Positions 892-20,399 of a stretch of DNA of 24,000 nucleotides are shown here, in pieces. A program made the translations under genes and the position numbers. The stretch comes from Acinetobacter lwoffii (lineage in GTDB: Bacteria; Pseudomonadota; Gammaproteobacteria; Pseudomonadales; Moraxellaceae): the NCBI RefSeq assembly GCF_029024105.1, contig NZ_CP118963.1, positions 384,559 to 408,558 on the forward strand. The letters are read 5' to 3'. The notes below the pieces were generated by a model. The model had not been told where the DNA came from and searched no databases. It saw nothing but the letters and a program-made list of their open reading frames with translations. The stretch's first letter is position 1. Each line of letters begins with the position of its first letter.

Positions 892-907
892 TGGCATACT
901 TAGTGCT
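892..907 (+). promoter_or_regulatory. sigma-54 (RpoN) -24/-12 promoter of pilA
   Basis: TGGCAT-ACTTA-GTGCT versus consensus TGGCAC-N5-TTGCW. GG (893-894) and GC (905-906) have the exact 12-nt register. It sits about 75 nt upstream of the pilA ATG. pilA is RpoN/PilSR-dependent in Pseudomonas. Confidence 0.7.
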
Positions 908-980: not shown

Positions 981-1538
981 ATGAAATCAGTTCAAAAGGG
1001 TTTCACCCTGATCGAATTAATGATCGTTGTTGCGATTATTGGTATTCTTGCTGCGGTTGCTCTTCCTGCTTATCAAGACTATACAGTTCGCGCCAAAGTA
1101 TCTGAAGGTATTTTAGCTGCCTCTTCTTGTCGTTCAGCAGTAACTGAAGCAGTTGATTCAGGTACTATTCCAGCTACAGGTCAAAAATGGGGCTGTGAAC
1201 AAGGTGAAGCTGGTACAGATAAGACAAAAGCAGCAACTAAATATGTTCAACAAGTAGCAGTTTCAAATTCTGGTACCTCTGTAGGACAAATCCGCGTAAC
1301 ATTAACAAATGATACTTCATTGAAAAGTGCAGCAGGTTTAAATATCTATATGACACCTACAACTGATGTTGATGGTAACGTTGCATTAAATTTAACTACT
1401 GTTTCAGGTGTAACTACTGATACAGCTACAACAGCTTTAATTAAGTCTTGGTCTTGTGGTTTAGTGAGTGGCGATGCTGATAAACAGAAATATTTGCCAG
1501 CTACTTGCCGTAAAGTACAAACTGCAGGTACTTTCTAA
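981..1538 (+). CDS. pilA: Type IVa major pilin PilA (prepilin, leader MKSVQKG|FTLIELM)
   Basis: Class III signal peptide with G|[34 protein letters not shown] at 971-975. C-terminal disulfide pair (SWSCG...ATCRK). The track start at 969 is a GTG extension. Confidence 0.93.
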
Positions 1539-1554
1539 GAGTTTGAAAGTAGTA

Positions 1555-1580
1555 AAAGCTGACTTCGGTCAGCTTTTTTT
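1555..1580 (+). terminator. Rho-independent terminator after pilA
   Basis: AAAAGCTGAC-TTCG-GTCAGCTTTT stem-loop followed by a T-run. Confidence 0.8.
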
Positions 1581-1595
1581 ACAAATGAAATTAAT

Positions 1596-3254
1596 ATGAA
1601 AATTATAATTTTTACGATTTTTCTTTGTTTTGCCTTATCTTATTTCATAGGCTTATCAGCACTCCCATGGACATCATCCTCGCAAGATTTTTTATGGTTT
1701 TTGGGTTTAATTTTATGTTTTTTTTTGTTTTATAAAAAAGAAGTTAAACTACCCAAAATTATTATTCCTCTTCTTTATATTTGTTTAATTCCTTTTATCC
1801 AATTTATATTTGGCCAGGTCTATTATTTTTCTACGGCTTTTTTTAGTTTTTGTTTTGTTTTTGGTTTTTTAGCGTCTCTTTTTTATGGTTATAACAGTCA
1901 TCAGTTAGCAGATCGAAATAAAATTATTCAATATATTGCATATTTTTTTACGATTATTGGTTTGATTAGTAGTTTATTCGCCATTGCGCAATGGCTTCAA
2001 ATCTCTCATCCTTATATCTTAAATTTAAGTCATAATCGGCCTTATGCAAACTTAGGGCAACCCAATCATTTAGCAACACTTTTAATGATGAGTATTTGCA
2101 GTGTGGTGTTTTTATATGAGCGGCATGAATATAAATGGTTCTTATGTGTGCTATTACTTGTTTTAGAAATTCATGCTCTTAGCCTGACGCAGTCTAGAAC
2201 GACATGGATTGTTATGATTGTCTTACTAGTTGTATATGTGTTAAAAAAAATAAATTTTCAAAGAACATCAACAGGAAAAATCATATTTTTATCGCTCGCA
2301 TTGTATGTGTTTCTTTTTATTTTTAATGCTGAAATTGCTGAATACTTAAAATTAGTTGCACCGATTCCTTTAGAAGATCGTATCAATAGTGGTTTTGCTC
2401 GTATTGAAATGTGGAAGCATATGATCTATGCCATCCAACAGCAACCTTGGTCGGGTTACGGTTGGTATCAAACTTCGATTGCTCAATTCGAGGGTGCACT
2501 TTTATTTCAAAATGAAGGCAATCTCTCAAGTGCACACAATATTATGATTGATTTAATACTATGGGTAGGCATTCCATTTGGTATTCTTTTGATTTTTTAT
2601 AGTTTGTACTTAATCAAGGTGATTATTTGTAATATTAAAACAACAGATGAACTTTATGTATTTATAATGATGCTATGTATATTGGTGCATGCTCAGCTTG
2701 AATATCCACTATATTATAGCTATTTCTTATTCCCTTTGGGGTTCTTTGTTGGAGTATTATTGATAAATTGCAATGTCAATACAATCTCAATCAATGAAAA
2801 ATTAAAGCAAGTAACTTTTTTATTTTCAATTATATTTTACGCTTTAATATTTCAACAATATGATCAATGGTTGACGAATCTGGGCTATGCATCAGGTATG
2901 GAAAATACAGGTCAATCACAAAATAAGCAATCAGTCATTTTTTCACAGTTTGCAGATCGAGCTGAGTTTATTGTTGCAAAAGTGGATAAACAGTATGCTG
3001 AAGACAAATTAGATTCATTTGAGCACTATGTAGTTAGTCAACCAAGCTACTATAATTTATTTAAAATGGCACAAATATTTTACTTTAATCAAGATTGGGT
3101 GAAAGCAAATTATTATTTTGAAGTATCGAATGCACTATATAATAAAAAGGCTTTATTCAAAGATTTATCAAAAATCGATACACACCAAAGTAATAATATT
3201 GCATCGCTATTTTTAAAAAAGCATGATGATCTATCAGCCCCAAACATGAAGTAA
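1596..3254 (+). CDS. Pilin-linked O-oligosaccharyltransferase, O-antigen-ligase (Wzy_C) superfamily (TfpO/PglS-like)
   Basis: 552-aa polytopic membrane protein. It shares QSRTTW, QPWSGYGWYQTS and SAHN motifs with the second OTase at 4084-5718 and has a TPR-like C-terminal tail. It lies immediately downstream of pilA and is markedly AT-rich. Confidence 0.75.
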   Translation: MKIIIFTIFLCFALSYFIGLSALPWTSSSQDFLWFLGLILCFFLFYKKEVKLPKIIIPLLYICLIPFIQFIFGQVYYFSTAFFSFCFVFGFLASLFYGYNSHQLADRNKIIQYIAYFFTIIGLISSLFAIAQWLQISHPYILNLSHNRPYANLGQPNHLATLLMMSICSVVFLYERHEYKWFLCVLLLVLEIHALSLTQSRTTWIVMIVLLVVYVLKKINFQRTSTGKIIFLSLALYVFLFIFNAEIAEYLKLVAPIPLEDRINSGFARIEMWKHMIYAIQQQPWSGYGWYQTSIAQFEGALLFQNEGNLSSAHNIMIDLILWVGIPFGILLIFYSLYLIKVIICNIKTTDELYVFIMMLCILVHAQLEYPLYYSYFLFPLGFFVGVLLINCNVNTISINEKLKQVTFLFSIIFYALIFQQYDQWLTNLGYASGMENTGQSQNKQSVIFSQFADRAEFIVAKVDKQYAEDKLDSFEHYVVSQPSYYNLFKMAQIFYFNQDWVKANYYFEVSNALYNKKALFKDLSKIDTHQSNNIASLFLKKHDDLSAPNMK

Positions 3255-3260
3255 TTGGTT

Positions 3261-3992
3261 ATGACAAAGCGTATTCAGTTTTTTATCAAGCATCTAACGT
3301 TATCCTTTATCATTGCCCTAGTGGTGCTTGGGGTTGTTTTTTACTGTTGGTACCCTACACCACTTGCAAAAGCTGTTGGTGTAACTTATATCATTTTAAT
3401 GTTATTTGCTATTGATATTATTGTTGGACCTTTATTAGGTTTATTGGTTTATAAAGAACATAAAAAAACCTTAAAATTTGATTTGACTGTCATTATTTTG
3501 ATCCAGATTTCGGCTTTAATGTATGGTATTTATAGTTTGGAGCAGGGGCGACCAGCTTGGATTGTTTATAATGTAGACCGTTTTGAGCTTGTGCGTAAAA
3601 ATGAAATCATCAATGAACATATTGAAAAGGCACAGCCACAGTACAAACAGCCCTCATTATTAAAACCTCAATATGTGATGGTCGAGGTGGCTACAGATAT
3701 TCAAAAGCGTCAAGCCGATTTATTTACGGAAGTGCTTGGAGGAGTGTCATTATCACAAATGCCAGATCGTTATATTGAATTTGATAATAAAGCACTTGTG
3801 CAAGGTAAAAATATTTTGAATATTAGAAAACTTTATGAGTACAATGAGGCATTAAGTGTTCGTAAAATTTTAGACGACTCACCTACAGCAGTAGGATTTG
3901 TACCACTAAAGGCAAGTCAAATAGATATGACGGTACTGCTTGATGCACAGGGTAAACCACTTGCAATCGTCGACCTTCGCCCGTGGAACTAA
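3261..3992 (+). CDS. TfpX/TfpZ-family type IV pilin accessory membrane protein
   Basis: N-terminal region FYCWYPTPLAKAVGVTYIILMLFAIDIIVGPLLGLLVYKEHKKTLKFDL...GRPAWIVYNVDRFELVR matches my recollection of Pseudomonas TfpX/TfpZ proteins. An alternative TTG start at 3255 abuts the upstream stop. Confidence 0.6.
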   Translation: MTKRIQFFIKHLTLSFIIALVVLGVVFYCWYPTPLAKAVGVTYIILMLFAIDIIVGPLLGLLVYKEHKKTLKFDLTVIILIQISALMYGIYSLEQGRPAWIVYNVDRFELVRKNEIINEHIEKAQPQYKQPSLLKPQYVMVEVATDIQKRQADLFTEVLGGVSLSQMPDRYIEFDNKALVQGKNILNIRKLYEYNEALSVRKILDDSPTAVGFVPLKASQIDMTVLLDAQGKPLAIVDLRPWN

Positions 3993-4014
3993 CTTGTATT
4001 TGAAAGATCAAAAC

Positions 4015-4045
4015 AAAAAGCAGATTCCCCTTTAATCTGCTTTTT
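4015..4045 (+). terminator. Rho-independent terminator after the TfpZ-like gene
   Basis: 12-bp stem AAAAAGCAGATT / AATCTGCTTTTT, 7-nt loop, T-run. Confidence 0.75.
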
Positions 4046-4083
4046 GTTTATCATGTGCCAAACTTCTACCGCTTGATATTTCC

Positions 4084-5718
4084 ATGAAATTTATGCTCGC
4101 TCTAATAGCAGCAATCCTCATTTCCCTTGCATGGCTCATGCCCATTCATTATCGGCCTTGGGTGACATATACGGGTGAGCTATATGCCTTTTTTGCACTA
4201 TTTGCTTTAGCTGCAATTTGCCTCAAAGAAAAACTCAAAATTCCAGCTCTCAGTCTGCCATTATTGCTACTCGCCTGTGTACCACTGATACATTTTCTGA
4301 CAGGACAGGTATTTTTCTTTAGCACTGCCATGATGGGCTTTATTTTTGTTTTTAGCTTTTGGCTGGCAAGTGTACTTGGCTATAATTTTTCTAGAGGAAA
4401 CAATAGCCGAGAAGAAACCTTTACCCATTTAAGCTATGTATTCTTGGTGTCAGGCACCATTACAGGCTTAATTGCTCTATGTCAGTGGATAAATCTGGAT
4501 TCAGTCTTGGTAGGCATGGTGAATATCAGTGGTACTCAACGTCCCTATGCCAATTTTGCCCAGCCAAATAATATGGCGACGTTTTTACTTATGTCGCTGA
4601 TGAGTTGCCTATATCTTTATGAAAAGAAAAAGATTCAAACAAAGTGGTTAATGACTTGCGCATTATCGATCATTATGGGCATCGCGCTTAGCCAATCCCG
4701 TACCTCGTGGGTAGCTGCCATAGCCATCATGATTTATCTTGCCATTTATCAATATAAAGGCATTATTCGCCTGAAATGGTATTACAGCATCGCTTGGTTC
4801 ATTTTCTTTATTGCATGTATTGTGGCCTTTCCTTTACTCAGTCAGTTGGCTGCACAGGCGATGAATACGGACATCGTACAAAGCAGGGATGTGGTATCTC
4901 GTGCTACCGGAGATATGTCACGACTCGCCATCTGGCAGCAGATGCTGGCCGCAATTCAGGCGCAGCCATGGTTTGGCTATGGCTGGTATCAGACCAGTGT
5001 GGCTTTTGTCTCGATCAGCGATACCATACAAGGCCCAGTTTGGATTCGAAGTGCGCATAATTTTATTCTGGACTTTTTGCTCTGGAATGGACTGATCATC
5101 GGTCTGCCTTTCTTGGCCTACTTTGGTTATTTGGGCTATCAGTTGCAACGCTGGGTCAATACGCCAGAGTCTGTCATTGGAATTTTGATGATTGGAGCAT
5201 TTGTCACACATGCCATGTTTGAGTTTCCACAGCATTATGCCTATTTCCTGCTGCCAGTCGGTTTTATTCTGGGTACGGTTCTGGCACAAAATCCAAAAAT
5301 TAAAACAGTGGTTATGCCATCAATCGGCATGCAATTCACTTTTGCTGTTGGGTTACTTCTATTGATTGTGATTTATCGGGATTATGACGTTGCAGTACCA
5401 AAACTCGGACAAAGTATTCGTTATGAAAAGCAGCAGGAAAAAATCACCAATGAAAAACCGATCTATCTGCTGACCGAGTTTAATCATCGCATTGGCTGGA
5501 TTCGTTTAAATCCTTATAGCAAAGCGTCTGTTGAACAGATTCAGGAAGGTGAACAAATGGTCTTGAGCTATCCAACCAAATATAACCTGATCAAATATGC
5601 CAAACTCTTAGCTTTTAATGGCTACGAGGCTGAGGCCAAGCATCAGCTGCAACGCTTAAAGACCATTCAGAAAACTGAAATGAGTTATGAGGAATTAACG
5701 CAGGATATGTCTCGCTAA
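4084..5718 (+). CDS. pglL: General protein O-oligosaccharyltransferase PglL-like (O-antigen ligase/Wzy_C family)
   Basis: 544-aa polytopic protein. Motifs: PIHYRPW N-terminal motif, SQSRTSW, QPWFGYGWYQTS, RSAHN. The position between pilA and bfr matches the A. baumannii PglL locus as I recall it. Confidence 0.75.
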   Translation: MKFMLALIAAILISLAWLMPIHYRPWVTYTGELYAFFALFALAAICLKEKLKIPALSLPLLLLACVPLIHFLTGQVFFFSTAMMGFIFVFSFWLASVLGYNFSRGNNSREETFTHLSYVFLVSGTITGLIALCQWINLDSVLVGMVNISGTQRPYANFAQPNNMATFLLMSLMSCLYLYEKKKIQTKWLMTCALSIIMGIALSQSRTSWVAAIAIMIYLAIYQYKGIIRLKWYYSIAWFIFFIACIVAFPLLSQLAAQAMNTDIVQSRDVVSRATGDMSRLAIWQQMLAAIQAQPWFGYGWYQTSVAFVSISDTIQGPVWIRSAHNFILDFLLWNGLIIGLPFLAYFGYLGYQLQRWVNTPESVIGILMIGAFVTHAMFEFPQHYAYFLLPVGFILGTVLAQNPKIKTVVMPSIGMQFTFAVGLLLLIVIYRDYDVAVPKLGQSIRYEKQQEKITNEKPIYLLTEFNHRIGWIRLNPYSKASVEQIQEGEQMVLSYPTKYNLIKYAKLLAFNGYEAEAKHQLQRLKTIQKTEMSYEELTQDMSR

Positions 5719-5722
5719 ATAC

Positions 5723-5750
5723 AAAAAAAGCCAGCAGATGCTGGCTTTTT
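5723..5750. terminator. Bidirectional terminator between convergent pglL and bfr
   Basis: AAAAAGCCAGC-AGAT-GCTGGCTTTTT: perfect stem with an A-run on one side and a T-run on the other. Confidence 0.85.
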
Positions 5751-6339: not shown

Positions 6340-7597
6340 AAACCTCGTTTTCAAGGCAGGGATATAAATGAGTGACCTAAGCCATACGACATGAAATGTC
6401 GTTTCAAATTAACATTTTTAACTTTGGATATTCTATTGGTTATTTTCATTGATAAAATAATCGCATGAAAACACTTAAATTACGCATTAAAGATAAACAT
6501 TCCAAGATATTAGAGCAATTAGCATCTGAAGTGAATTTCGTCTGGAATTATGTCAATGATTTAAGCTTTAAACACCTTAAAAGAAAAGGTGAATTTCTCA
6601 GTGCTTACGATATTGCTGAATATACGAAAGGTACATCTAGGCTTTGTGGGTTACATAGTCAAACCATTCAGGCTGTTACCGAAGAATTAGTCATACGCAG
6701 AAAGCAATTCAAGAAGACTAAACTAAAATGGCGGGTCAGTCATAAGAAATCAGCCAGAAGATCACTAGGTTGGATACCCTTTAAGAAAGTAGCAATCAAG
6801 TATGCTGATGGCCATATCCAGTATGGCAAGCATCAGTTTAAAATATGGGATAGCTATGGACTGTCAAATTACAGTATCAAGACTGGTTCGTTTGTCGAGG
6901 ATGCGCGTGGCCGCTGGTATGTCTGCTTAGTTGTGAATAGCTCTAAAATTGAGAAATCGAGTGCGACTAATTTGATTGGGATTGATCTGGGCTTAAAGGA
7001 TATAGCCACTTGTTCGGATGGTACGATAATTTCAAATCCCAAGTTCTACCGTCAATATGAACAGAAATTAGGGATTGCTCAACGAGCGAAAAATAGAAAA
7101 CGGGTCCGTGCATTACACGCCAAGATTGCAAACTGTCGTAAAGACCATTTGCACAAAGCAAGTACGATGCTTATAAAGAAAAATGCACTAATTGTTGTAG
7201 GCGATCTGAGTGCGAAAAAACTGGTGAAAACCAAGATGGCGAAGTCTGTTCTGGATACCGGATTTTCAGCATTCAAGACCATGCTCAAGTATAAATGCGA
7301 GAACGCAGGAGTATGGTTTGAAGAAGTTAGTGAAAGTTTCACAACCCAAATGTGTTCGTGCTGTGGCGAGGTCACTGCAAGCAGTCCGAAAGGTAGAACA
7401 GATTTGCGAATAAGAGTATGGGAATGTGAAAACTGTTCAAGTGTTCTGGATCGGGACTTGAATAGTGCTAAGAACATACTTGCGCTTGGGCATAAGCGTC
7501 TCGCAGGAGGAATCAGCTCTATTTAAAGAGGTGAGGATGTCAAGGAACAGCAAATGAAAATCGACATCGAATCCATTCAGACTCAGATGAATGGCAA
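6340..7597 (+). mobile_element. IS200/IS605-family element carrying tnpB only (IS1341-like); ends approximate
   Basis: tnpB is flanked by perfect 7-bp hairpins (6386-6402 and 7573-7594). It fills an otherwise unexplained 1.45-kb gap between bfd and bfr. No tnpA is present. Exact LE/RE junctions are not determinable from this window. Confidence 0.45.
6465..7526 (+). CDS. tnpB: TnpB/OrfB-family RNA-guided nuclease-like protein (IS200/IS605 accessory protein)
   Basis: 353 aa. RuvC-I IGIDLG (D174), zinc ribbon CSCC...CENC, RuvC-III LDRDLNSAKNI. The canonical RuvC-II xEDL position reads VVGDL (G246). Confidence 0.85.
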   Translation: MKTLKLRIKDKHSKILEQLASEVNFVWNYVNDLSFKHLKRKGEFLSAYDIAEYTKGTSRLCGLHSQTIQAVTEELVIRRKQFKKTKLKWRVSHKKSARRSLGWIPFKKVAIKYADGHIQYGKHQFKIWDSYGLSNYSIKTGSFVEDARGRWYVCLVVNSSKIEKSSATNLIGIDLGLKDIATCSDGTIISNPKFYRQYEQKLGIAQRAKNRKRVRALHAKIANCRKDHLHKASTMLIKKNALIVVGDLSAKKLVKTKMAKSVLDTGFSAFKTMLKYKCENAGVWFEEVSESFTTQMCSCCGEVTASSPKGRTDLRIRVWECENCSSVLDRDLNSAKNILALGHKRLAGGISSI

Positions 7598-13023: not shown

Positions 13024-13107
13024 ATGCCATTCATCTCTATTTGTGTGGGTTTTGTAATCTAATTGGATACTATTTTTAATGAGGTAAAGGGTTGCCTTGG
13101 GGATGAT

Positions 13108-13539
13108 ATGCAAAAAAATAAAGGTTTTACACTCATAGAACTTATGGTGACCATTGCGGTGATGGCAATTATCGCGATGATGGCGGCTCCGTCTTTTATC
13201 CAAATGGTTCGGAGTAATCAATTGCGAAGCGATACCCGTGATTTTGTGGATTTATTGAGCGAAACGAGATCAGAAGCGATCTTTAAACAGAGTGATCGGG
13301 TCGTAGCGTTAGATAGTAGTGTGGCAACACCTTTTAAAACTTGGGTGCCAACGCATGTCACAAAAACGAGTGGGGATAGCAGTGTGACTTTTAATCGTTT
13401 GGGGCAGACCAGTGTTTCCACAAACGGACAGTGCTTTATTTTTGAACACAGTAGTGATGCTGCGTTAAAAGCATATGTGTATGTACAAAAGGGTGGAACG
13501 GTTGTTTACAATAAAGCGGCAACAAGTTGTCCGACTTGA
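13108..13539 (+). CDS. fimU: Type IV minor pilin FimU (GspH/FimT family)
   Basis: Leader MQKNKG|FTLIELMVTIAVMAIIAMMAAPSF. First gene of the minor-pilin operon. The track start at 13063 is an extension. Confidence 0.8.
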   Translation: MQKNKGFTLIELMVTIAVMAIIAMMAAPSFIQMVRSNQLRSDTRDFVDLLSETRSEAIFKQSDRVVALDSSVATPFKTWVPTHVTKTSGDSSVTFNRLGQTSVSTNGQCFIFEHSSDAALKAYVYVQKGGTVVYNKAATSCPT

Positions 13540-13557
13540 GGGGAAGGAATAATAAAA

Positions 13558-14043
13558 ATGATGAAACGTCAAACGGGAGTTGGGTTGGTGGAGGTGCTTG
13601 TGGCTTTAGTACTTCTAAGTATTGCTGTATTGGGGTTTGTGGCATTACAAATTAGAGCCATCACGGCTAGCAACGAAGCGACGATGAATGTTCAGGCGAC
13701 CAATATTGCCCGAGATTTGGCGGAGCGGATGCGTATGAATCGGGATGGGTTGGTGGGATATGTTGCGAATACCGATACCACGAATTGCGCAACTGCATTT
13801 TGCTCCCCTGAAGATATGGCTAAATACGATTTTAGACTAGTAAGCAGCCGTGCAACTGGCTTGGGTATGAGCATGAATGTGCTTAATTGTCAAGGATCTA
13901 CCTTAGTGCGTAAATGTGTTTATGTGGCGTGGGAAGAAACAACTGCGACCAATGGTACAAGTAGTTCTGATTGCACCAATGGTGCAGCCTATGTGCCAAA
14001 TGCGAAATGCATCATCATGGAGGTATATAACTATGGCTCATAA
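13558..14043 (+). CDS. pilV: Type IV pilus minor pilin PilV
   Basis: MMKRQTG|VGLVEVLVALVLLSIAVLGFVALQ is a PilV-type N-terminus. SD GAGGGGAAGGA upstream. Confidence 0.8.
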   Translation: MMKRQTGVGLVEVLVALVLLSIAVLGFVALQIRAITASNEATMNVQATNIARDLAERMRMNRDGLVGYVANTDTTNCATAFCSPEDMAKYDFRLVSSRATGLGMSMNVLNCQGSTLVRKCVYVAWEETTATNGTSSSDCTNGAAYVPNAKCIIMEVYNYGS

Positions 14044-14983
14044 GCGATATACCTCAGGTTTCACCCTCATGGAGTTGATGATTGCTTTAGCATTAGGATT
14101 GTTAATTGTTGCCGCAGGTTTGGCTGTGTTTTTGAGTAGTCAGCGTTCTTTGGGTTTACAGTCTGGCATGAGTGAGTTGCAGCAAAATGCTAACTTTGGA
14201 ATGTCGCTCGTTACACATGATTTGAGACATACCAATTTAAATACTGCCTCTTCACATAGGGTGAATAATTATAACAATGGTTCGGGGATTATTTTTAAAA
14301 AAGAAAATCTACCAACTGCATTGCAAGCAACACCTAATTTAGAAGCTGAATTTGTTACTTTGCAAAATAAGGATACTGACAACACTACTGGGACAAGTGA
14401 TCGGTTAACTATACAATATGTCCCTGCAAGCAGTGAGATTTTTAATTGTGAAGGCGTACAGGTGACGAATGCGTCCTCGAAAACCATTGTGCAACGTTAT
14501 TATGTGGCAGAAAGTCCACAACAAGTACCGGGTGAGCCGACCTCGTACTCGCTGTATTGTGATGCTGCTTCTTATGATGGTGCAGGGCTAGTCGGTTTAA
14601 ATACCAATGCACAACAAATTATGCAGCGGGTCGATGCGTTTAAAGTACGCTTAGGGGTAAAAAATCCTGCGGGTCAGTTACGGTATATGACGATTAATGA
14701 ATATATTACTGCGATGGAGACAATCCGTGCAGCTTGTGCCACCCCAATAGTTGAAGATACCTGTTCAAAAACCTATTTGAATGTTGTTTCTATGGAGATT
14801 GGTATTCTGTCTCGGTCTACAGGAACAATTGGGGCAGATGCAAATTTAAATACTCAAACCAGCTTTAATGTTGCTGGAACTCCAGTCACGCTTTCAGGGG
14901 ATGTAGCAGTAAATAAGCGATATTTGCGTCAGGCGGTAAATCAAGTGGTCGCCATTCGTAATACCTTGGGAGCATCATCATGA
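14033..14983 (+). CDS. pilW: Type IV pilus assembly minor pilin PilW
   Basis: MAHKRYTSG|FTLMELMIALALGLLIVAAG. GGAGG SD at 14019-14023. It overlaps the pilV end by 11 nt. The track start at 13916 is an extension inside pilV. Confidence 0.8.
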   Translation: MAHKRYTSGFTLMELMIALALGLLIVAAGLAVFLSSQRSLGLQSGMSELQQNANFGMSLVTHDLRHTNLNTASSHRVNNYNNGSGIIFKKENLPTALQATPNLEAEFVTLQNKDTDNTTGTSDRLTIQYVPASSEIFNCEGVQVTNASSKTIVQRYYVAESPQQVPGEPTSYSLYCDAASYDGAGLVGLNTNAQQIMQRVDAFKVRLGVKNPAGQLRYMTINEYITAMETIRAACATPIVEDTCSKTYLNVVSMEIGILSRSTGTIGADANLNTQTSFNVAGTPVTLSGDVAVNKRYLRQAVNQVVAIRNTLGASS

Positions 14984-15666
14984 AACAACAAAAAGGTGCA
15001 ACACTCATTACGGTATTGGTCATTTTGATCGTTATCACATTACTGGGGACTATAGCGGTAAAAATGGGGATTGTGGGCTTAAAAATTGCAACTAATAGTC
15101 AGGTGAATGCGTTGTTGTTAGAAAACTCCGATTCAGCGTTGTTTAATATTGAAAACCCTGCTGAGGTTGAAAGACAATTGGCTCTGGATGGTATGTTTGC
15201 TTATTTTAACTCGTCTGCCAATACAAATGACGAATTGGTATTTTGCTATCGCGCATCGGAAAATTCTTTCTTTAAATTATCTAAAGCTAGCGCGATTACA
15301 GAGGATGGATCAACGACCAAGATTGGTGTTGATGGCTTTTGTAAAGCCAATCAATTTGCAATGGGGCGTTCTGCAGTGTTGTCACAAGTGTATTTAACCA
15401 AAAATGCAACAACCTCTACACCATTTGGTGGTGTGCCAAAAGGAACAAGTCTTGGACAAAGTCATGTGCCGGTAACCATGCATAATATCGGCGCGACTGT
15501 CATTTCAGTCTTACCAGGTTTTGCAGGTGCGACTACTACGCAAATAGAGAACTGTTTTAAGCAGCGGGCTTCGGCCGTGGGGGCATGTTTTGATGGGTTA
15601 GGTATTCCCTATAACATGCAGCATTCGGACTATACCGTTGGCGGTCAGCCGAAGCTGGTATCGTAA
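14980..15666 (+). CDS. pilX: Type IV pilus minor pilin PilX
   Basis: MKQQKGATLITVLVILIVITLLG is a PilX_N-type N-terminus. ATGA overlap with the pilW stop. Confidence 0.75.
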   Translation: MKQQKGATLITVLVILIVITLLGTIAVKMGIVGLKIATNSQVNALLLENSDSALFNIENPAEVERQLALDGMFAYFNSSANTNDELVFCYRASENSFFKLSKASAITEDGSTTKIGVDGFCKANQFAMGRSAVLSQVYLTKNATTSTPFGGVPKGTSLGQSHVPVTMHNIGATVISVLPGFAGATTTQIENCFKQRASAVGACFDGLGIPYNMQHSDYTVGGQPKLVS

Positions 15667-15683
15667 AGAAAAAGGGTTTAAAG

Positions 15684-18600
15684 ATGGATAAAATAAATCA
15701 TAAAAATACGCTTTCAGCTGCGGTGTCAATGTTCATGACTCTAGCTGTATGTTACAGCGTGTCTGCACAAGCTAGTGATATTGATATTTATAGTAATACG
15801 ACTAGTGGCAAAACCACGATTACCATGATGCTCGATACATCAGGTAGTATGGGTAATGGTCTTTTTTATTATAGTACATTTTTCGGAATTTTTACTGGAT
15901 CTCATTCCACAAATAGTTTACAGGAAGATTATGGAGTTTGTGTGAATGCAAATTCCACTAGATATGAAAGTAATTCGAATATCCGTACAGAGGTGAAAAC
16001 TGTTACATTATCGGATAACACGACTGTTAATTACACAAGATATTATTGTAGGGTAAGAAATTCATCATCGGAATATACAAGACTAAAAGATAAGGGTGTT
16101 TGTACCGAGTCAGGCACTGAACTGCGATGTTTCGACCGGTTAACTCGATTAAAAGATGCTTTGATTGAAGTATTTCAAGATGCTGAAATTAAAGATAATA
16201 ATATTCTTATTGGATTGGGGCAGTATTCTAGTTCAACTTCAAGTATTGAAACCTCAAGTAATGCTGATGGAAGTACTGGACGAATTCTAGTTGCAGCAAA
16301 GCCGATGGATAATACGCATAGTGATAATTTAATTAAGGCTATTGTCAATTTATCCCCATATGGTGGTACACCTACAGCCCATGCTTATGCTGAGATTGGT
16401 GCATATATGTTAGGTAGGACAACTAAAGGCAGTAGTGAGAATGCTGGTAGTGGTTTTGATAAATCTAATACTACAGATATAAAGCAAGACAATAAATATA
16501 AATCACCGTTTGGCACAACTCTACCTTCCCCAACAGACACATGTAATGGTCAAGGTATTTATTTCTTGACTGATGGTGCACCCAACAGTTCGAATAATTC
16601 ATCTAAATTAATGAGACGAGCATTAGGTCTTAGTAGTGATTTTTCTGATTCAGGTGGGTTGCCTAATGGAAGTGAAGATAATAATCAAATGAGTTATGTG
16701 GGAGCGTTCGCTAAAAAAATACGGTCTGATTACAATATAAAAACTGCAGTAGTAGGTTTTGGTAAAGATTTTATTGTTAATGAAAATACTCTTAAACTAT
16801 TAGAAGATCCACTAACAAAGAAAATTAAGCCTTATTATGACTGTTCTCAGTTATCTGGAGATGCTAAAAATGCTTGTAACTGGGGAGCTAAACAACATGC
16901 TCAATTACCTAGTAACGTAGGTGGTTTTGGTAACGGTGGTTTTTATTCTGCTCAATCTACCCAAGATATTATAGATAGTATTAAATATTTCGTGGATGAT
17001 ACTAAACCTCCCTTTGACCCTGTTGCAACAGGTTCACCGACTTTACCGCAAGATGCTTTAAATCCATTACGCATTCAGCCTTATGGTTATTACGCTTCAT
17101 TTTTGCCGAAACCGCAGGAATCGACCCAGCTTTGGGTTGGGAATATGAATAAATATCATATTTTTAACGGCGAACTATATAATGCAAGCAAAACTATTCG
17201 CTTAATTAAGTCAGATGGTTCGCTTGACGCAGCCGCCAAAGGGCTTTGGACCGACGAGGGCATGAAAGGACAATTGCCTTTGGGTTTAAGCACCAATGGC
17301 GCAAATGAAAAAATTGCCAACCGTACTCTTTATACCAATCGGGAAATTACAGGTACTGCGGCTCCGTATGCAGCAAGTGAAATCGGTTCACTGAAAAAAG
17401 TCAATGTGACGACTTTATTTGGTACGGGCACTACAGCGTTATTTGCCAATGACCCAGATAAAAACTATTGGTTGAACCTGCTCGGCTATAATGTTGCCAC
17501 CACAGGTATAGTCACTTTAGCAGATCTTGCGACCAAACCTGAACTGCGTCAGGTCGGTTCGGTTATGCACTCCACTCCTATTTTGCTCACCCAGTCAGGT
17601 AAAATTTCATACACTTCTGGCACTATTGACACCACTGATCGTGACGATTACTTATTATTCGGTAGTACACAAGGATTATTGCATGTCGTACGGGCAGGCA
17701 AAAATGCAACTGATGCAAATCGTGGTAAAGAGGTTTTTGCCTTTGCGCCAAACGAAATGATGCAAAATCAAAAGAATGCTTTTCTATCTGAAACCAGTAC
17801 TACCTTGGGCAAAAATAACCTGTTCTACGGTATAGATGCACCGTGGACGGCTTATACCCAGTATGTTGCAAAAGCAGATGGAACATTGACCGTTAACGAC
17901 TCAGGTCGTGTTGCACAAAATGCCAGTGGTGATGATATTGCCATTAAAGGTTTGCAGTGGGTCTATGGTGGTTTGCGTATGGGAGGCAAAAGTTATTACG
18001 CTTTGAATTTATCTGACTTAGATAATCCAGAGCTCAAATTTCACATCGACCCAGCCAACTCAAAAATTTATAAATCAAGTTCCACAACTACAGGTGTAAC
18101 CGCTCTAAGCTATATGGGACAAAGCTGGTCTAAACCGACCATTGCTTATGTGAATTTTGGTGGGGTCAAGAAACTGGTCATGTTTGTGGGTGGGGGTTAT
18201 GACCCTGGTTATGAAGATGCGGCTTATGACCAAAATACTACAACAGGCGGCGGTGCGGGCGTATATATGTTTGATGCCAATAATGGCGACTTGCTTTGGT
18301 GGACCAGTGCCAATGCAACAGCAGCAGGTGGTGCAGAAGCCTATACCAATGTCAGTGCAACGAGCATTAACATGAAATATAGTGTAGTCAGTCAGATCAA
18401 TGCCATTGACCGTGATAGCGACGGTTTGGTCGACAACTTATACTTTGGTGACTTAGGTGGACAAGGTTTCCGTGTCGACTTAAATAATGCAGCAACAGGT
18501 ACGACCGCAAGTGCTAAAAAAGCGAATTTTGCTAAACGTGTTGTACGCTTATTTGATGAACATGCAACAGGTGGGGCAAGCCCTCGCTTCTATGAAATGC

Positions 18601-19271
18601 CAAGTGTGTCTATACATGACAGCGATGATGGCTATGTTGCTGCCGTTGCGTTTAGCTCAGGTAATCGCAGTTCACCATTGGTTGGGGCGGCTGGCACGAA
18701 TCAGGCGGGTTCAGCAACCAGTGCAGTAGATGGCGTATTTGTGGCTTATGATAAAGACGTTGCAAAAATGGATCTTTATGGTACGCCAACATTAACCACC
18801 CGGACTGCGCTGTCTTCCTTAAACAGTAACATGAGTACAGGTGTTGCAATTAATGGAAATAGCGGTTGGAAATATACCTATTCAAGTACTGCAGGTGCTT
18901 ATAAAGGAATGAATGAGCTATATGCCTTAGATGGTATGTTGTATGTCAATGTGTTTCATCGTGATGGTACAGGTATTGGTGGTTCGTGTGGTGCAGGTGT
19001 CAAAGGTGACAGCTATGTCTATCAGTTCTGTTTGCCTACAGGAAAATGTCCATTTAATACAACCACATCTGGGGTGCCGAATAGCGTAAAACTTGGTGCG
19101 GGTATTTTGGGTGCTGGTTTAGGTCAAGGACGTAGTAGTGCCAATAATACTGGGTTGATTGTAAACCGCCCTAACACGCTCAATTGTACCACTAGCCCAA
19201 ATTTACCTGAATGTCAGGAGTTTACCACCACAGCGAAACTTAGACAGTTACGTTGGTATGAAACTCGTTAA
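15684..19271 (+). CDS. pilY1: PilY1/PilC-family type IV pilus tip adhesin (N-terminal vWA domain, C-terminal beta-propeller)
   Basis: Signal peptide ...SVSAQA|SD. vWA MIDAS residues LDTSGSM / GGTPT / FLTDGAPN. C-terminal PilY1 domain with the Ca-binding loop DRDSDGLVD (18408-18434). 1195 aa. Confidence 0.88.
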   Translation: MDKINHKNTLSAAVSMFMTLAVCYSVSAQASDIDIYSNTTSGKTTITMMLDTSGSMGNGLFYYSTFFGIFTGSHSTNSLQEDYGVCVNANSTRYESNSNIRTEVKTVTLSDNTTVNYTRYYCRVRNSSSEYTRLKDKGVCTESGTELRCFDRLTRLKDALIEVFQDAEIKDNNILIGLGQYSSSTSSIETSSNADGSTGRILVAAKPMDNTHSDNLIKAIVNLSPYGGTPTAHAYAEIGAYMLGRTTKGSSENAGSGFDKSNTTDIKQDNKYKSPFGTTLPSPTDTCNGQGIYFLTDGAPNSSNNSSKLMRRALGLSSDFSDSGGLPNGSEDNNQMSYVGAFAKKIRSDYNIKTAVVGFGKDFIVNENTLKLLEDPLTKKIKPYYDCSQLSGDAKNACNWGAKQHAQLPSNVGGFGNGGFYSAQSTQDIIDSIKYFVDDTKPPFDPVATGSPTLPQDALNPLRIQPYGYYASFLPKPQESTQLWVGNMNKYHIFNGELYNASKTIRLIKSDGSLDAAAKGLWTDEGMKGQLPLGLSTNGANEKIANRTLYTNREITGTAAPYAASEIGSLKKVNVTTLFGTGTTALFANDPDKNYWLNLLGYNVATTGIVTLADLATKPELRQVGSVMHSTPILLTQSGKISYTSGTIDTTDRDDYLLFGSTQGLLHVVRAGKNATDANRGKEVFAFAPNEMMQNQKNAFLSETSTTLGKNNLFYGIDAPWTAYTQYVAKADGTLTVNDSGRVAQNASGDDIAIKGLQWVYGGLRMGGKSYYALNLSDLDNPELKFHIDPANSKIYKSSSTTTGVTALSYMGQSWSKPTIAYVNFGGVKKLVMFVGGGYDPGYEDAAYDQNTTTGGGAGVYMFDANNGDLLWWTSANATAAGGAEAYTNVSATSINMKYSVVSQINAIDRDSDGLVDNLYFGDLGGQGFRVDLNNAATGTTASAKKANFAKRVVRLFDEHATGGASPRFYEMPSVSIHDSDDGYVAAVAFSSGNRSSPLVGAAGTNQAGSATSAVDGVFVAYDKDVAKMDLYGTPTLTTRTALSSLNSNMSTGVAINGNSGWKYTYSSTAGAYKGMNELYALDGMLYVNVFHRDGTGIGGSCGAGVKGDSYVYQFCLPTGKCPFNTTTSGVPNSVKLGAGILGAGLGQGRSSANNTGLIVNRPNTLNCTTSPNLPECQEFTTTAKLRQLRWYETR

Positions 19272-19281
19272 GGGGTAAAGC

Positions 19282-19974
19282 ATGAAAAAATACTTCGCTA
19301 GGGTGGTTTTTTTGCACAGGTCGAATATAGTTGCGAACTCTGCTTGTGAGTTAAAAACTTGCAAGCAGGGATTCGCCCGCCTCAACCGCAATGCTGGATT
19401 TACACTTATTGAACTGATGATTGTTATCGTGATTATGGCAGTTCTTGCTGCCATCGCTTATCCTAATTATACGCAATACATGGAAAGACGAGATTTGGCA
19501 ATCGCGAGACAAGAAGCCTTGCGTATTGCTGCAGAGCTTGAACGGTTTAAATCAAGGAATTTTGGTTATAAAGGTTTTGATGCTAGTTATTTGTATGTAT
19601 ATACAGAGACGGATGCTGATGGAAATCCTACAACTGCCAGTTATTATAATAAAACGACGGGTCAATTGTTGTTGCCACTAGGCTCAACGAGTTCCACTGC
19701 GAAATATACGTTGACATTGGCGAATGGAGGAACAGGACATAAGCCCTTAACGATTGTTAAAGGACCTGATGGTCAAGAAACAGCAGATTCGGCGAGTGTG
19801 AACGGTTTGAGCTGGGTAATGTCGCTAGAGCGGGCTAAGGATAGTGATGGTGAGCCAAAACAGCCACGTAATTACGATCTGCTTTTAAGCAATACAGGTA
19901 TACGTTGTATGACAAAAGTCAAAGATGTAGTGACAGGTTATGCAAATTGCGGCAGTTATAGCGAGTCATGGTAA
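19282..19974 (+). CDS. PilE-like type IV minor pilin with unusually long N-terminal leader
   Basis: AG|[27 protein letters not shown] is preceded by 39 in-frame residues. AAGGGG SD 6 nt before the ATG at 19282. Paralogous to the next gene. Confidence 0.75.
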   Translation: MKKYFARVVFLHRSNIVANSACELKTCKQGFARLNRNAGFTLIELMIVIVIMAVLAAIAYPNYTQYMERRDLAIARQEALRIAAELERFKSRNFGYKGFDASYLYVYTETDADGNPTTASYYNKTTGQLLLPLGSTSSTAKYTLTLANGGTGHKPLTIVKGPDGQETADSASVNGLSWVMSLERAKDSDGEPKQPRNYDLLLSNTGIRCMTKVKDVVTGYANCGSYSESW

Positions 19975-20399
19975 TGAAAAAATACTCTTTAGCATTTACT
20001 TTAATTGAATTAATGATTGTTGTCGCAATTATTGGCATCTTGGCAGCAATTGCTTATCCATCTTACACACAGTACAAAATCCGTACCAATCGGGCAGATG
20101 TGCAAAGTGAAATGATGCAAATAGCCCAACGGTTACAGAGTTATTATGTCATCAATCATAATTATACCAACGCAAGATTGGACAATGGCACAGTGAGTAA
20201 AGCCTATCCTGCTTCAGGAAGTGTATATACCATCACCCTTGCGCCACTCGATCAAACTTGGACGCTTACGGCAGTCCCAACCCCGAATACAGTTCAAGAT
20301 GGTAATGGAGCAGTGGTGCTAAATAGCCAAGGACAAAAATGTTGGGAGAAAGGAACGACATGCAGTGTTTCTACTTCTTCAAATTGGGAAAGTCGTTAA
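19968..20399 (+). CDS. pilE: Type IV minor pilin PilE
   Basis: MVMKKYSLA|[33 protein letters not shown]. An alternative ATG at 19974 overlaps the upstream stop (TAATG). Confidence 0.82.
   Translation: MVMKKYSLAFTLIELMIVVAIIGILAAIAYPSYTQYKIRTNRADVQSEMMQIAQRLQSYYVINHNYTNARLDNGTVSKAYPASGSVYTITLAPLDQTWTLTAVPTPNTVQDGNGAVVLNSQGQKCWEKGTTCSVSTSSNWESR

Follow-up and report, generated by a model that had tools for sequence, protein, structure and literature searches.

The 24,000 nucleotides (nt) of Acinetobacter lwoffii DNA analysed here, referred to as the window, contain a pilin locus near their start in which pilA is followed by a first oligosaccharyltransferase (OTase) gene, a tfpZ gene and a second OTase gene, all in the same orientation. 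Two TPM-domain genes flank the locus on one side and the convergent bacterioferritin gene bfr on the other. Scaffold KB849157.1 in the Acinetobacter assembly GCA_000367905.1 carries the window sequence without a difference, and cluster members of the window proteins carry the names A. pseudolwoffii and A. lwoffii. A preliminary description of this DNA had given coordinates for the four open reading frames (ORFs) that all agree with the ORF list. The genes and the features between them are as follows.

892-907, plus strand: sigma-54-type promoter element TGGCAT-N6-TGCT, 74 nt before the pilA start codon (ATG)
981-1538, plus strand: pilA, a 185-aa prepilin with the Pfam families Pilin and N_methyl
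1557-1587 (hairpin 1557-1580), plus strand: terminator-like hairpin and U-run in the gap between pilA and OTase 1, GCUGAC-UUCG-GUCAGC, -17.3 kcal/mol, z -5.0
1596-3254, plus strand: OTase 1, 552 aa, with Wzy_C, Wzy_C_2 and PglL_A
2580-4072 (up to 4121), plus strand: DNA block nearly identical to that of other A. lwoffii-group genomes, encoding OTase 1 residues 329-552 and the whole of TfpZ and including the hairpin
3261-3992, plus strand: tfpZ, 243 aa, NF041437 and PF27166 FimB
4011-4049, both directions: 16-bp palindromic, terminator-like hairpin between tfpZ and pglL, -19 kcal/mol, z -9.3
4084-5718, plus strand: OTase 2 (pglL), 544 aa, with Wzy_C, Wzy_C_2 and PglL_A
5729-5750, both directions: bidirectional terminator hairpin where pglL and bfr converge, -17.6 kcal/mol, z -3.9

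Taken as one explanation, which is considered reasonably probable as a whole, this would be where a strain of the A. lwoffii/pseudolwoffii group encodes its major type IV pilin, at a conserved chromosomal site between the TPM-domain genes and bfr. The variable cassette would consist of pilA, OTase 1 and tfpZ, with pglL as part of the conserved backbone, and the products would be a pilin-dedicated OTase 1, an independent TfpZ and a general PglL.

Both OTases have the domain set of PglL/PglS-type enzymes (Wzy_C, PglL_A and Wzy_C_2). The Pfam scores of OTase 1 are 50 bits for Wzy_C, 49.5 bits for Wzy_C_2 and 34.8 bits for PglL_A, all above the curated cutoffs. The two enzymes are distant paralogues, with 29% identity across 530 aa, and they do share the motifs previously pointed out in them: QSRT at residues 199 and 204 of OTase 1 and OTase 2 respectively, QPW.GYGWYQTS at 283 and 294, and SAHN at 312 and 323. 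The tails that had been called TPR-like match no tetratricopeptide repeat (TPR) family at E<=0.01 in either protein; the C-terminal region is the Wzy_C_2 domain. No NCBIfam model names either OTase. The SAHN histidine is essential in PglL of Neisseria meningitidis. His314 of OTase 1, in this motif, aligns with His349 of a 610-aa oligosaccharyltransferase (9rmk_A), the only relative with a solved structure, and OTase 2 has His325 in the same motif. For TfpM, H286A has been used as the active-site mutant (Knoot et al.). The OTase 1 ORF is intact and the histidine is conserved in every allele, over a span of 39-100% identity.

The pilin of the window has its closest solved relatives in PilE of N. 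meningitidis and N. gonorrhoeae (E 6e-20). It has an extra Cys50-Cys72 pair in addition to the C-terminal disulfide loop Cys159-Cys176, and its last residue is Phe. The pilins of seven OTase 1-clade loci (7 alleles, 174-186 aa) align as a single family, which is marked by the Cys50-Cys72 loop with SSCR(T/S)...WGCEQG, and the pilin adjoining a 567-aa OTase with just 39% identity to OTase 1 is a member of it as well. A Thr or Ser is conserved directly before KYVQ and Ser142 is invariant amid variable surroundings. The C-terminus, on the other hand, is variable, being QTAGTF, QTAGA, Q or QS, and two of the seven alleles end in Ser. Because the pairing of OTase clade and pilin family is old and the pilin C-terminus varies, OTase 1 can be inferred to be a pilin-dedicated O-linking oligosaccharyltransferase (O-OTase) that would use an internal acceptor site. 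With its 23 aa the Cys50-Cys72 loop is as long as the ComP110264 glycotag. A ComP-type sequon was considered for it and rejected, because the loop is placed differently (50-72, versus 75-95 in A. baylyi ComP) and no Asn follows Ser60 at +5.

OTase classes are not assignable from sequence alone. The marks of each class, taken from published heuristics and a 2025 review, were set beside the features of the locus. TfpO and TfpM are short (about 420-460 aa), have neither PglL_A nor Wzy_C_2 and act on the last residue of the pilin, and PglS and PglL have 525-600 aa and both of these domains. PglS goes with a ComP of 140-150 aa, which has a 19-23-aa Cys-flanked sequon around Ser82/84 with Asn at +5, and pglL is then elsewhere in the genome. 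At 552 aa and with both PglL_A and Wzy_C_2, next to a pilin ending in Phe, OTase 1 has the features neither of TfpO nor of TfpM (about 422-440 aa; pilin ending in Thr or Ser). The pilin is not of the ComP type, with 185 aa and no Asn at +5 from Ser60, and pglL is found 830 nt downstream of OTase 1 in the same locus.

A neighbour-joining tree of 46 sequences (capped Kimura distances, 100 bootstraps) was built with PglS, TfpM and PglL among them, TfpO being compared by description. OTase 1 falls into a clade of its own, the core of which has 100% bootstrap support, or 75% with distant members included. It grouped with PglS in 0/100 bootstraps, in comparison to 98/100 for the pair of A. baylyi and A. 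soli PglS. Its identity to A. baylyi PglS is 32%, confined to core residues 73-398, or 22-24% when the trimmed alignment is used; the values are about 26% for the PglL group next to bfr and 27-31% for other pilin-linked long OTases. The TfpM proteins of A. parvus and A. terrae are on a separate branch, with 13% identity. Homologues with at least 50% identity to OTase 1 make up only about 35 clusters and all the named ones are from Acinetobacter. An assignment to PglS or TfpM is thus largely refuted by identity, tree and pilin features. TfpO appears to be excluded by size, domains and the pilin C-terminus, against published descriptions only.

OTase 2 is located between tfpZ and the convergent bfr and falls, in the same tree, in a cluster of bfr-adjacent OTases from 17 other loci, including that of A. 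calcoaceticus. This cluster was not recovered as an exclusive clade in the bootstraps because two labels had been left out of the test set. The published knockout primers for A1S_3176 translate to the start of pilA and to a segment of bfr, RMFNDWGIE, and therefore the characterised PglL of A. baumannii (A1S_3176) sits between pilA and bfr. Judged by sequence and position, OTase 2 is the predicted positional orthologue of the general O-OTase PglL.

The 243-aa product between the OTases is, as had been suspected, a member of the TfpX/TfpZ family: it scores 297.4 bits against NCBIfam NF041437 (cutoff 200), covering profile positions 1-240 of 240, and its precomputed Pfam family is PF27166 FimB. 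A match to DUF6512 is sub-threshold (18.5 bits, cutoff 26) and was dismissed. Its length and the three hydrophobic stretches within residues 4-93 of its hydropathy profile fit the 235-245 aa and three N-terminal transmembrane helices of the family. In a low-confidence AlphaFold2 model there are helices at 3-30, 39-65 and 71-95 and a C-terminal three-stranded sheet at 212-237 (pLDDT, the predicted local confidence, 72-90). TfpY-like proteins are described as having a short cytoplasmic N-terminus and a periplasmic mixed beta-sheet, helix and three-stranded antiparallel sheet, and the C-terminal domain of TfpZ is presumably periplasmic.

The tfpZ gene is located in the major pilin cassette, downstream of pilA. 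In comparisons within the A. lwoffii group PglL stays 81-94% identical while TfpZ drops to 43-57% in loci with other pilin types, which places tfpZ inside the exchangeable pilin cassette, as in Pseudomonas. In P. aeruginosa, TfpY promotes pilus assembly and is co-regulated with pilA through the terminator. TfpX is dispensable for pilin glycosylation, and TfpY-like proteins have been noted in A. baumannii (Qaderi et al.). The simplest reading is that glycosylation and assembly would be two independent accessory functions.

To see how widespread this layout is, one genome per species in GTDB was scanned with a TfpZ alignment, returning 50 loci, of which 49 had a TfpZ ORF; the loci were annotated by phmmer, a Wzy_C hidden Markov model and Pfam. 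Acinetobacter supplies almost all of them, and Moraxella and Neisseria a few. A PglL-type OTase is directly downstream of tfpZ in 38 of the 49 and bfr is downstream in 43, whereas a Wzy_C OTase is found on the pilin side in 14 and the other 35 have no OTase in the pilin cassette. The pilA locus of Acinetobacter is thus usually built on tfpZ-pglL-bfr as a backbone, and the variation sits between the TPM genes and tfpZ.

An OTase is directly upstream of tfpZ in 7/49 species representatives, and also in A. wanghuae and two further assemblies. The order pilin-OTase-tfpZ-pglL is present in A. pseudolwoffii ANC 5044, A. lwoffii VE245-5, strains YH16052 and A2 and A. wanghuae, and with a different long OTase in ANC 4862. 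In A. parvus DSM 16617 the order is pilin-TfpM-TfpZ-PglL, the OTase being the 422-aa TfpM in the list of Knoot et al. The seven called OTase 1-clade loci (L001, L002, L004, L010, L011, L012 and L059; 71-100% identity) have the pilin directly upstream and TfpZ then PglL downstream, and the two loci with the divergent 567-aa OTase (L060 and L061; 39% identity) share this order. The preliminary description had regarded the cassette as a hybrid not known to have been characterised. It is instead a recurrent and old architecture present in several species, and P. aeruginosa group IV already pairs TfpW with TfpX. That it is experimentally uncharacterised does hold: in the literature searched, nothing treats TfpX/Y/Z-type genes in connection with a pilin OTase cassette of Acinetobacter, and TfpZ is never mentioned in the TfpM paper (Knoot et al.). 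The new element is modest but concrete: a clade of PglL-like OTases linked to pilin genes, as yet uncharacterised, that comes with a pilin family of its own and a closely coupled tfpZ.

Other contents of these loci were recorded in the survey. In one of the two loci with the divergent OTase, a MazE/PemK toxin-antitoxin pair is inserted between tfpZ and pglL (L060:7551-8128). In other Acinetobacter species the slot between pilA and tfpZ holds further candidate pilin modifiers. Four loci (L019, L022, L039 and L054) have sulfatase/EptA-like transferases there, reminiscent of Neisseria PptA, and six (L015, L019, L032, L034, L046 and L047) have proteins with a beta-lactamase fold and 392-399 aa. 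The slot is also occupied by a Wzy_C protein of 394 aa and by a methyltransferase resembling spermine synthase together with a major facilitator superfamily fragment. Among the positions recorded for these slot genes is L054:5419-6963. Inverted second cassettes adjoin the pilA locus at L021:1132-4482, L061:1-3331 and L060:395-3569, each with a pilin gene and then a 623-648-aa protein without a Pfam family. The third gene encodes a family 2 glycosyltransferase in L021 and L061 and another TfpZ-family protein in L060; this inverted cassette may be a TfpW-like glycosylation module. Acinetobacter sp. ANC 4862 has a 551-aa OTase followed by TfpZ on each of two contigs, at a contig end and a contig start (L013 and L028), being either one locus split by assembly or a duplication. 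In A. guillouiae (L062) and A. ursingii (L064) a long pilin-linked OTase (543-553 aa) and PglL are in the same locus, where a small pilin-like gene takes the place of tfpZ; a Cys-flanked loop and a C-terminal Ser occur together in the A. guillouiae pilin. The cassette type varies within A. pseudolwoffii, Acilw_F78 being listed with a 424-aa TfpM and a 142-aa pilin and ANC 5044 having the OTase 1 type.

The block 2580-4072 has approximately 100% nucleotide identity to five other genomes, namely A. pseudolwoffii ANC 5044, A. lwoffii VE245-5, YH16052 and a further two assemblies; three of the five are GTDB species representatives. The flanks are 8-40% divergent. Its left breakpoint, at 2579/2580 inside OTase 1, is sharp and common to all of the comparisons, and the right one is near 4072-4121. 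Outside the block, nucleotide identity is 57-68% in pilA, 68-92% in the 5' 1 kb of OTase 1 and 66-100% in pglL. Within OTase 1 itself the N-terminal part has 76-86% amino-acid identity and the C-terminal part 99.6-100%. A near-identical block between divergent flanks suggests a recent sweep or gene conversion between species.

The three hairpins had been taken as the terminators of three separate transcription units. The hairpins stand, with z from -3.9 to -9.3 against shuffled sequence. That after pilA is kept in A. wanghuae, in sp. A2 and in GCA_025513595, and A. wanghuae has a similar one in its tfpZ-pglL gap. Separate units are doubtful, since OTase 1 has no plausible promoter, tfpZ follows it after 6 nt and the pilA terminator is read through in P. 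aeruginosa. Regulation of pilA by RpoN and PilR is known from other gamma-proteobacteria, which is the basis for assigning a sigma-54 role to the element at 892-907. The pattern TGGCAT-N6-TGCT has 2 matches in the window against 0.37 expected, and in 10/11 related loci the same element precedes the pilin start by 69-89 nt. Most likely, then, pilA would be driven by a sigma-54-type promoter.

The gap between pilA and OTase 1 is 57 nt and is nearly filled by the terminator hairpin. The lone candidate for a promoter of OTase 1, at 1578-1606, overlaps the start codon and was rejected; promoter-like matches in the region number 29, compared with 27.8 in shuffled sequence, and are thus not in excess. 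The start of tfpZ is 6 nt past the OTase 1 stop, and a 6-nt gap or an overlap is found in all OTase 1-clade loci examined, so that the two genes are possibly translationally coupled. In P. aeruginosa, read-through of the pilA terminator is the established way in which accessory-gene levels are set, and it is documented for pilA-tfpY. From the hairpin-filled gap, the 6-nt spacing, the lack of promoter excess and the pilA-tfpY precedent, attenuated read-through from the pilA promoter would be favoured over three units, and the hairpin at 1557-1587 is probably an attenuator.

The locus might then work as follows. Transcription of pilA would start from the sigma-54-type promoter and most transcripts would stop at the hairpin after pilA, the read-through giving a low-level bicistronic message for OTase 1 and TfpZ. 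In the periplasm, OTase 1 would move a lipid-linked glycan en bloc onto an internal Ser or Thr of its cognate pilin. TfpZ would act independently, like TfpY of P. aeruginosa, as an inner-membrane factor promoting pilus assembly, while OTase 2, as the general PglL, would glycosylate many periplasmic and membrane proteins.

A number of points weigh against this explanation. The acceptor candidates, Ser60, Thr86 and the invariant Ser142, are a guess; Ser60, which lies in the Cys50-Cys72 loop, is replaced by Ala in one allele out of seven, and the window pilin has Glu at the residue aligned with Ser63 of PilE. An O-OTase and a WaaL-type ligase are distinguishable by experiment only. OTase 1 need not be the sole pilin OTase, since PglL is able to glycosylate pilins in Neisseria. 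As for TfpZ, within the OTase 1-type cassette it is 99-100% identical compared with 63-72% for the pilins, which argues that it is not finely matched to particular pilins. Its AlphaFold2 model, from a 35-sequence alignment, has a mean pLDDT of 59.9, a predicted template modelling score of 0.31 and a pLDDT below 50 for residues 92-174.

Other explanations place OTase 1 differently. It could simply belong to one of the pilin OTase classes already known, as an orthologue of TfpO, PglS or TfpM, with tfpZ merely attached; it is directly downstream of a pilin gene like tfpO, pglS and tfpM, and two of the seven cognate pilin alleles end in Ser. This is very unlikely given the length of the protein and its PglL_A and Wzy_C_2 domains, which TfpO and TfpM lack, the 13% identity to TfpM, the core-only similarity to PglS without any joint bootstrap grouping, and pilins of 174-186 aa that have no ComP-type sequon and are accompanied by an adjacent pglL. 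It could, in contrast, not be specific for pilin at all and be a second general O-OTase, an O-antigen or lipooligosaccharide ligase, or a decaying duplicate. Its domain set is that of PglL, and the Wzy_C motif cannot tell OTases from ligases. However, the ORF is intact and has the conserved histidine in every allele, the gene is always between the same pilin family and tfpZ, and it is the N-terminal catalytic part that varies with pilA while PglL is kept next door, making a non-specific role unlikely.

A functional pair of OTase 1 and TfpZ, in which TfpZ presents or holds the pilin or couples glycosylation to assembly, would account for their constant close spacing and for the C-terminal third of OTase 1 and tfpZ forming a single nearly invariant DNA block; TfpY, moreover, probably contacts the major pilin. 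Against this, most of the surveyed tfpZ loci (35/49) have no OTase in the pilin cassette, and pilin-linked long OTases occur in the absence of tfpZ in A. guillouiae and A. ursingii, so a pair of this kind is decidedly unlikely. Least credible is the proposal in the preliminary description of a recent recombinant hybrid of TfpO-type and TfpZ-type cassettes. The breakpoints at 2579/2580 and near 4072-4121 are sharp, as would be expected of it, but they divide alleles of one cassette type, not two types. The gene order is kept across lineages in which OTase 1 is 39-71%, TfpZ 56-67% and the pilin approximately 64-77% identical, and the arrangement is therefore old.

The preferred explanation, a pilin-dedicated OTase 1 beside an independent TfpZ and a general PglL, can be set against systems already described. 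The P. aeruginosa group IV cassette pilA-tfpW-tfpX (Pa5196, PA7) similarly has a pilin, a pilin-modifying membrane glycosyltransferase and then a TfpX/TfpZ-family gene. However, TfpW is an arabinofuranosyltransferase unrelated to the Wzy_C OTases, while the window has a Wzy_C O-OTase, and pglL afterwards. P. aeruginosa group V (pilA-tfpZ) and group III (pilA-tfpY) and Dichelobacter nodosus fimA-fimB have the same NF041437/PF27166 protein of 235-245 aa with three N-terminal helices, and a terminator between the pilin and the accessory gene, but these cassettes are without an OTase and their pilins are reported to be unmodified. Within Acinetobacter, the pilA-tfpO-pglL arrangement of A. nosocomialis M2 likewise brings a pilin, a pilin-specific OTase and the general pglL together in one locus. 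The TfpO there has about 420-460 aa and neither PglL_A nor Wzy_C_2, its target is the C-terminal Ser, and no tfpZ is described. The comP-pglS pair of A. baylyi ADP1 and A. soli has a 548-553-aa OTase with Wzy_C and Wzy_C_2 after a pilin-like gene, and an internal Ser is glycosylated. It differs in its ComP, which has 140-150 aa and a sequon flanked by Cys75 and Cys95, in having no tfpZ and, in A. baylyi, in pglL being elsewhere.

Of the pilin-tfpM pairs of Moraxellaceae, that of A. parvus DSM 16617 shares the four-gene layout, with pilin-TfpM-TfpZ-PglL-bfr at the same chromosomal site, although its 422-aa TfpM has Wzy_C only and targets a C-terminal Thr/Ser, and there is no terminator between pilin and tfpM. 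The Neisseria PilE/PglL (PglO) system resembles the locus in its pilin, PilE being the closest to the window pilin among solved structures, and in the PglL domains and catalytic histidine that both OTases share with it. In Neisseria, however, a single general OTase serves pilin and other proteins, and the window has a second, pilin-linked paralogue.

The O-OTases of Acinetobacter and Moraxella (PglS, TfpM) are working enzymes for the production of bioconjugate vaccines in Escherichia coli, and every new O-OTase class has added a sequon and a range of glycans not available before. The OTase 1 clade with its own pilin family is a candidate for a further enzyme-sequon pair. The locus is also a natural setting, with a TfpY-like assembly factor and a pilin OTase 6 nt apart, for probing the interaction of the two functions. 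The tfpZ gene is a routine part of the Acinetobacter pilA locus and yet goes unmentioned in the published descriptions of Acinetobacter OTase loci that were examined. A broader suggestion, which is tentative, is that, beside TfpO, TfpM and PglS, the OTase 1 clade may form another class of O-OTase dedicated to pilin. It would be PglL-like, would read an internal site in a distinct family of PilE-like pilins with the extra Cys50-Cys72 loop, and would always be co-expressed with a closely coupled TfpZ. The pilA locus would, on this suggestion, be a hypervariable pilin-modification island with a conserved tfpZ/pglL backbone hosting interchangeable modifiers, among them several OTase lineages, EptA-like transferases, beta-lactamase-fold proteins and the large protein without a Pfam family that adjoins a family 2 glycosyltransferase.

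An Rfam scan found no RNA family in the window. The ORF at 25-216, which has a glycine-rich tail (GGGRGGNGRGGFGGGFGGGGGGFGGGG), is the C-terminus of an upstream 349-aa TPM-domain protein and overlaps the start of the second TPM-domain gene at 210-770. Beyond bfr are a TnpB gene, bfd, ridA and spoT. The TnpB gene (6465-7526, between bfr and bfd) is an orphan of the RNA-guided endonuclease family (NF040570, 242 bits). It is missing from the equivalent site in locus L003 and is between ridA and spoT in L004-L006; with these differences in site it is apparently mobile. In a metagenome contig, two integrase genes and a DUF6262 gene adjoin TnpB (L006:11345-14230). Approximately 7 kb downstream of the pilA locus there is a minor-pilin/PilY1-like operon (13063-20399) encoding N_methyl proteins, PilW, PilX and a 1195-aa protein. 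Its proximity is relevant to the proposal that TfpY acts with minor pilins.

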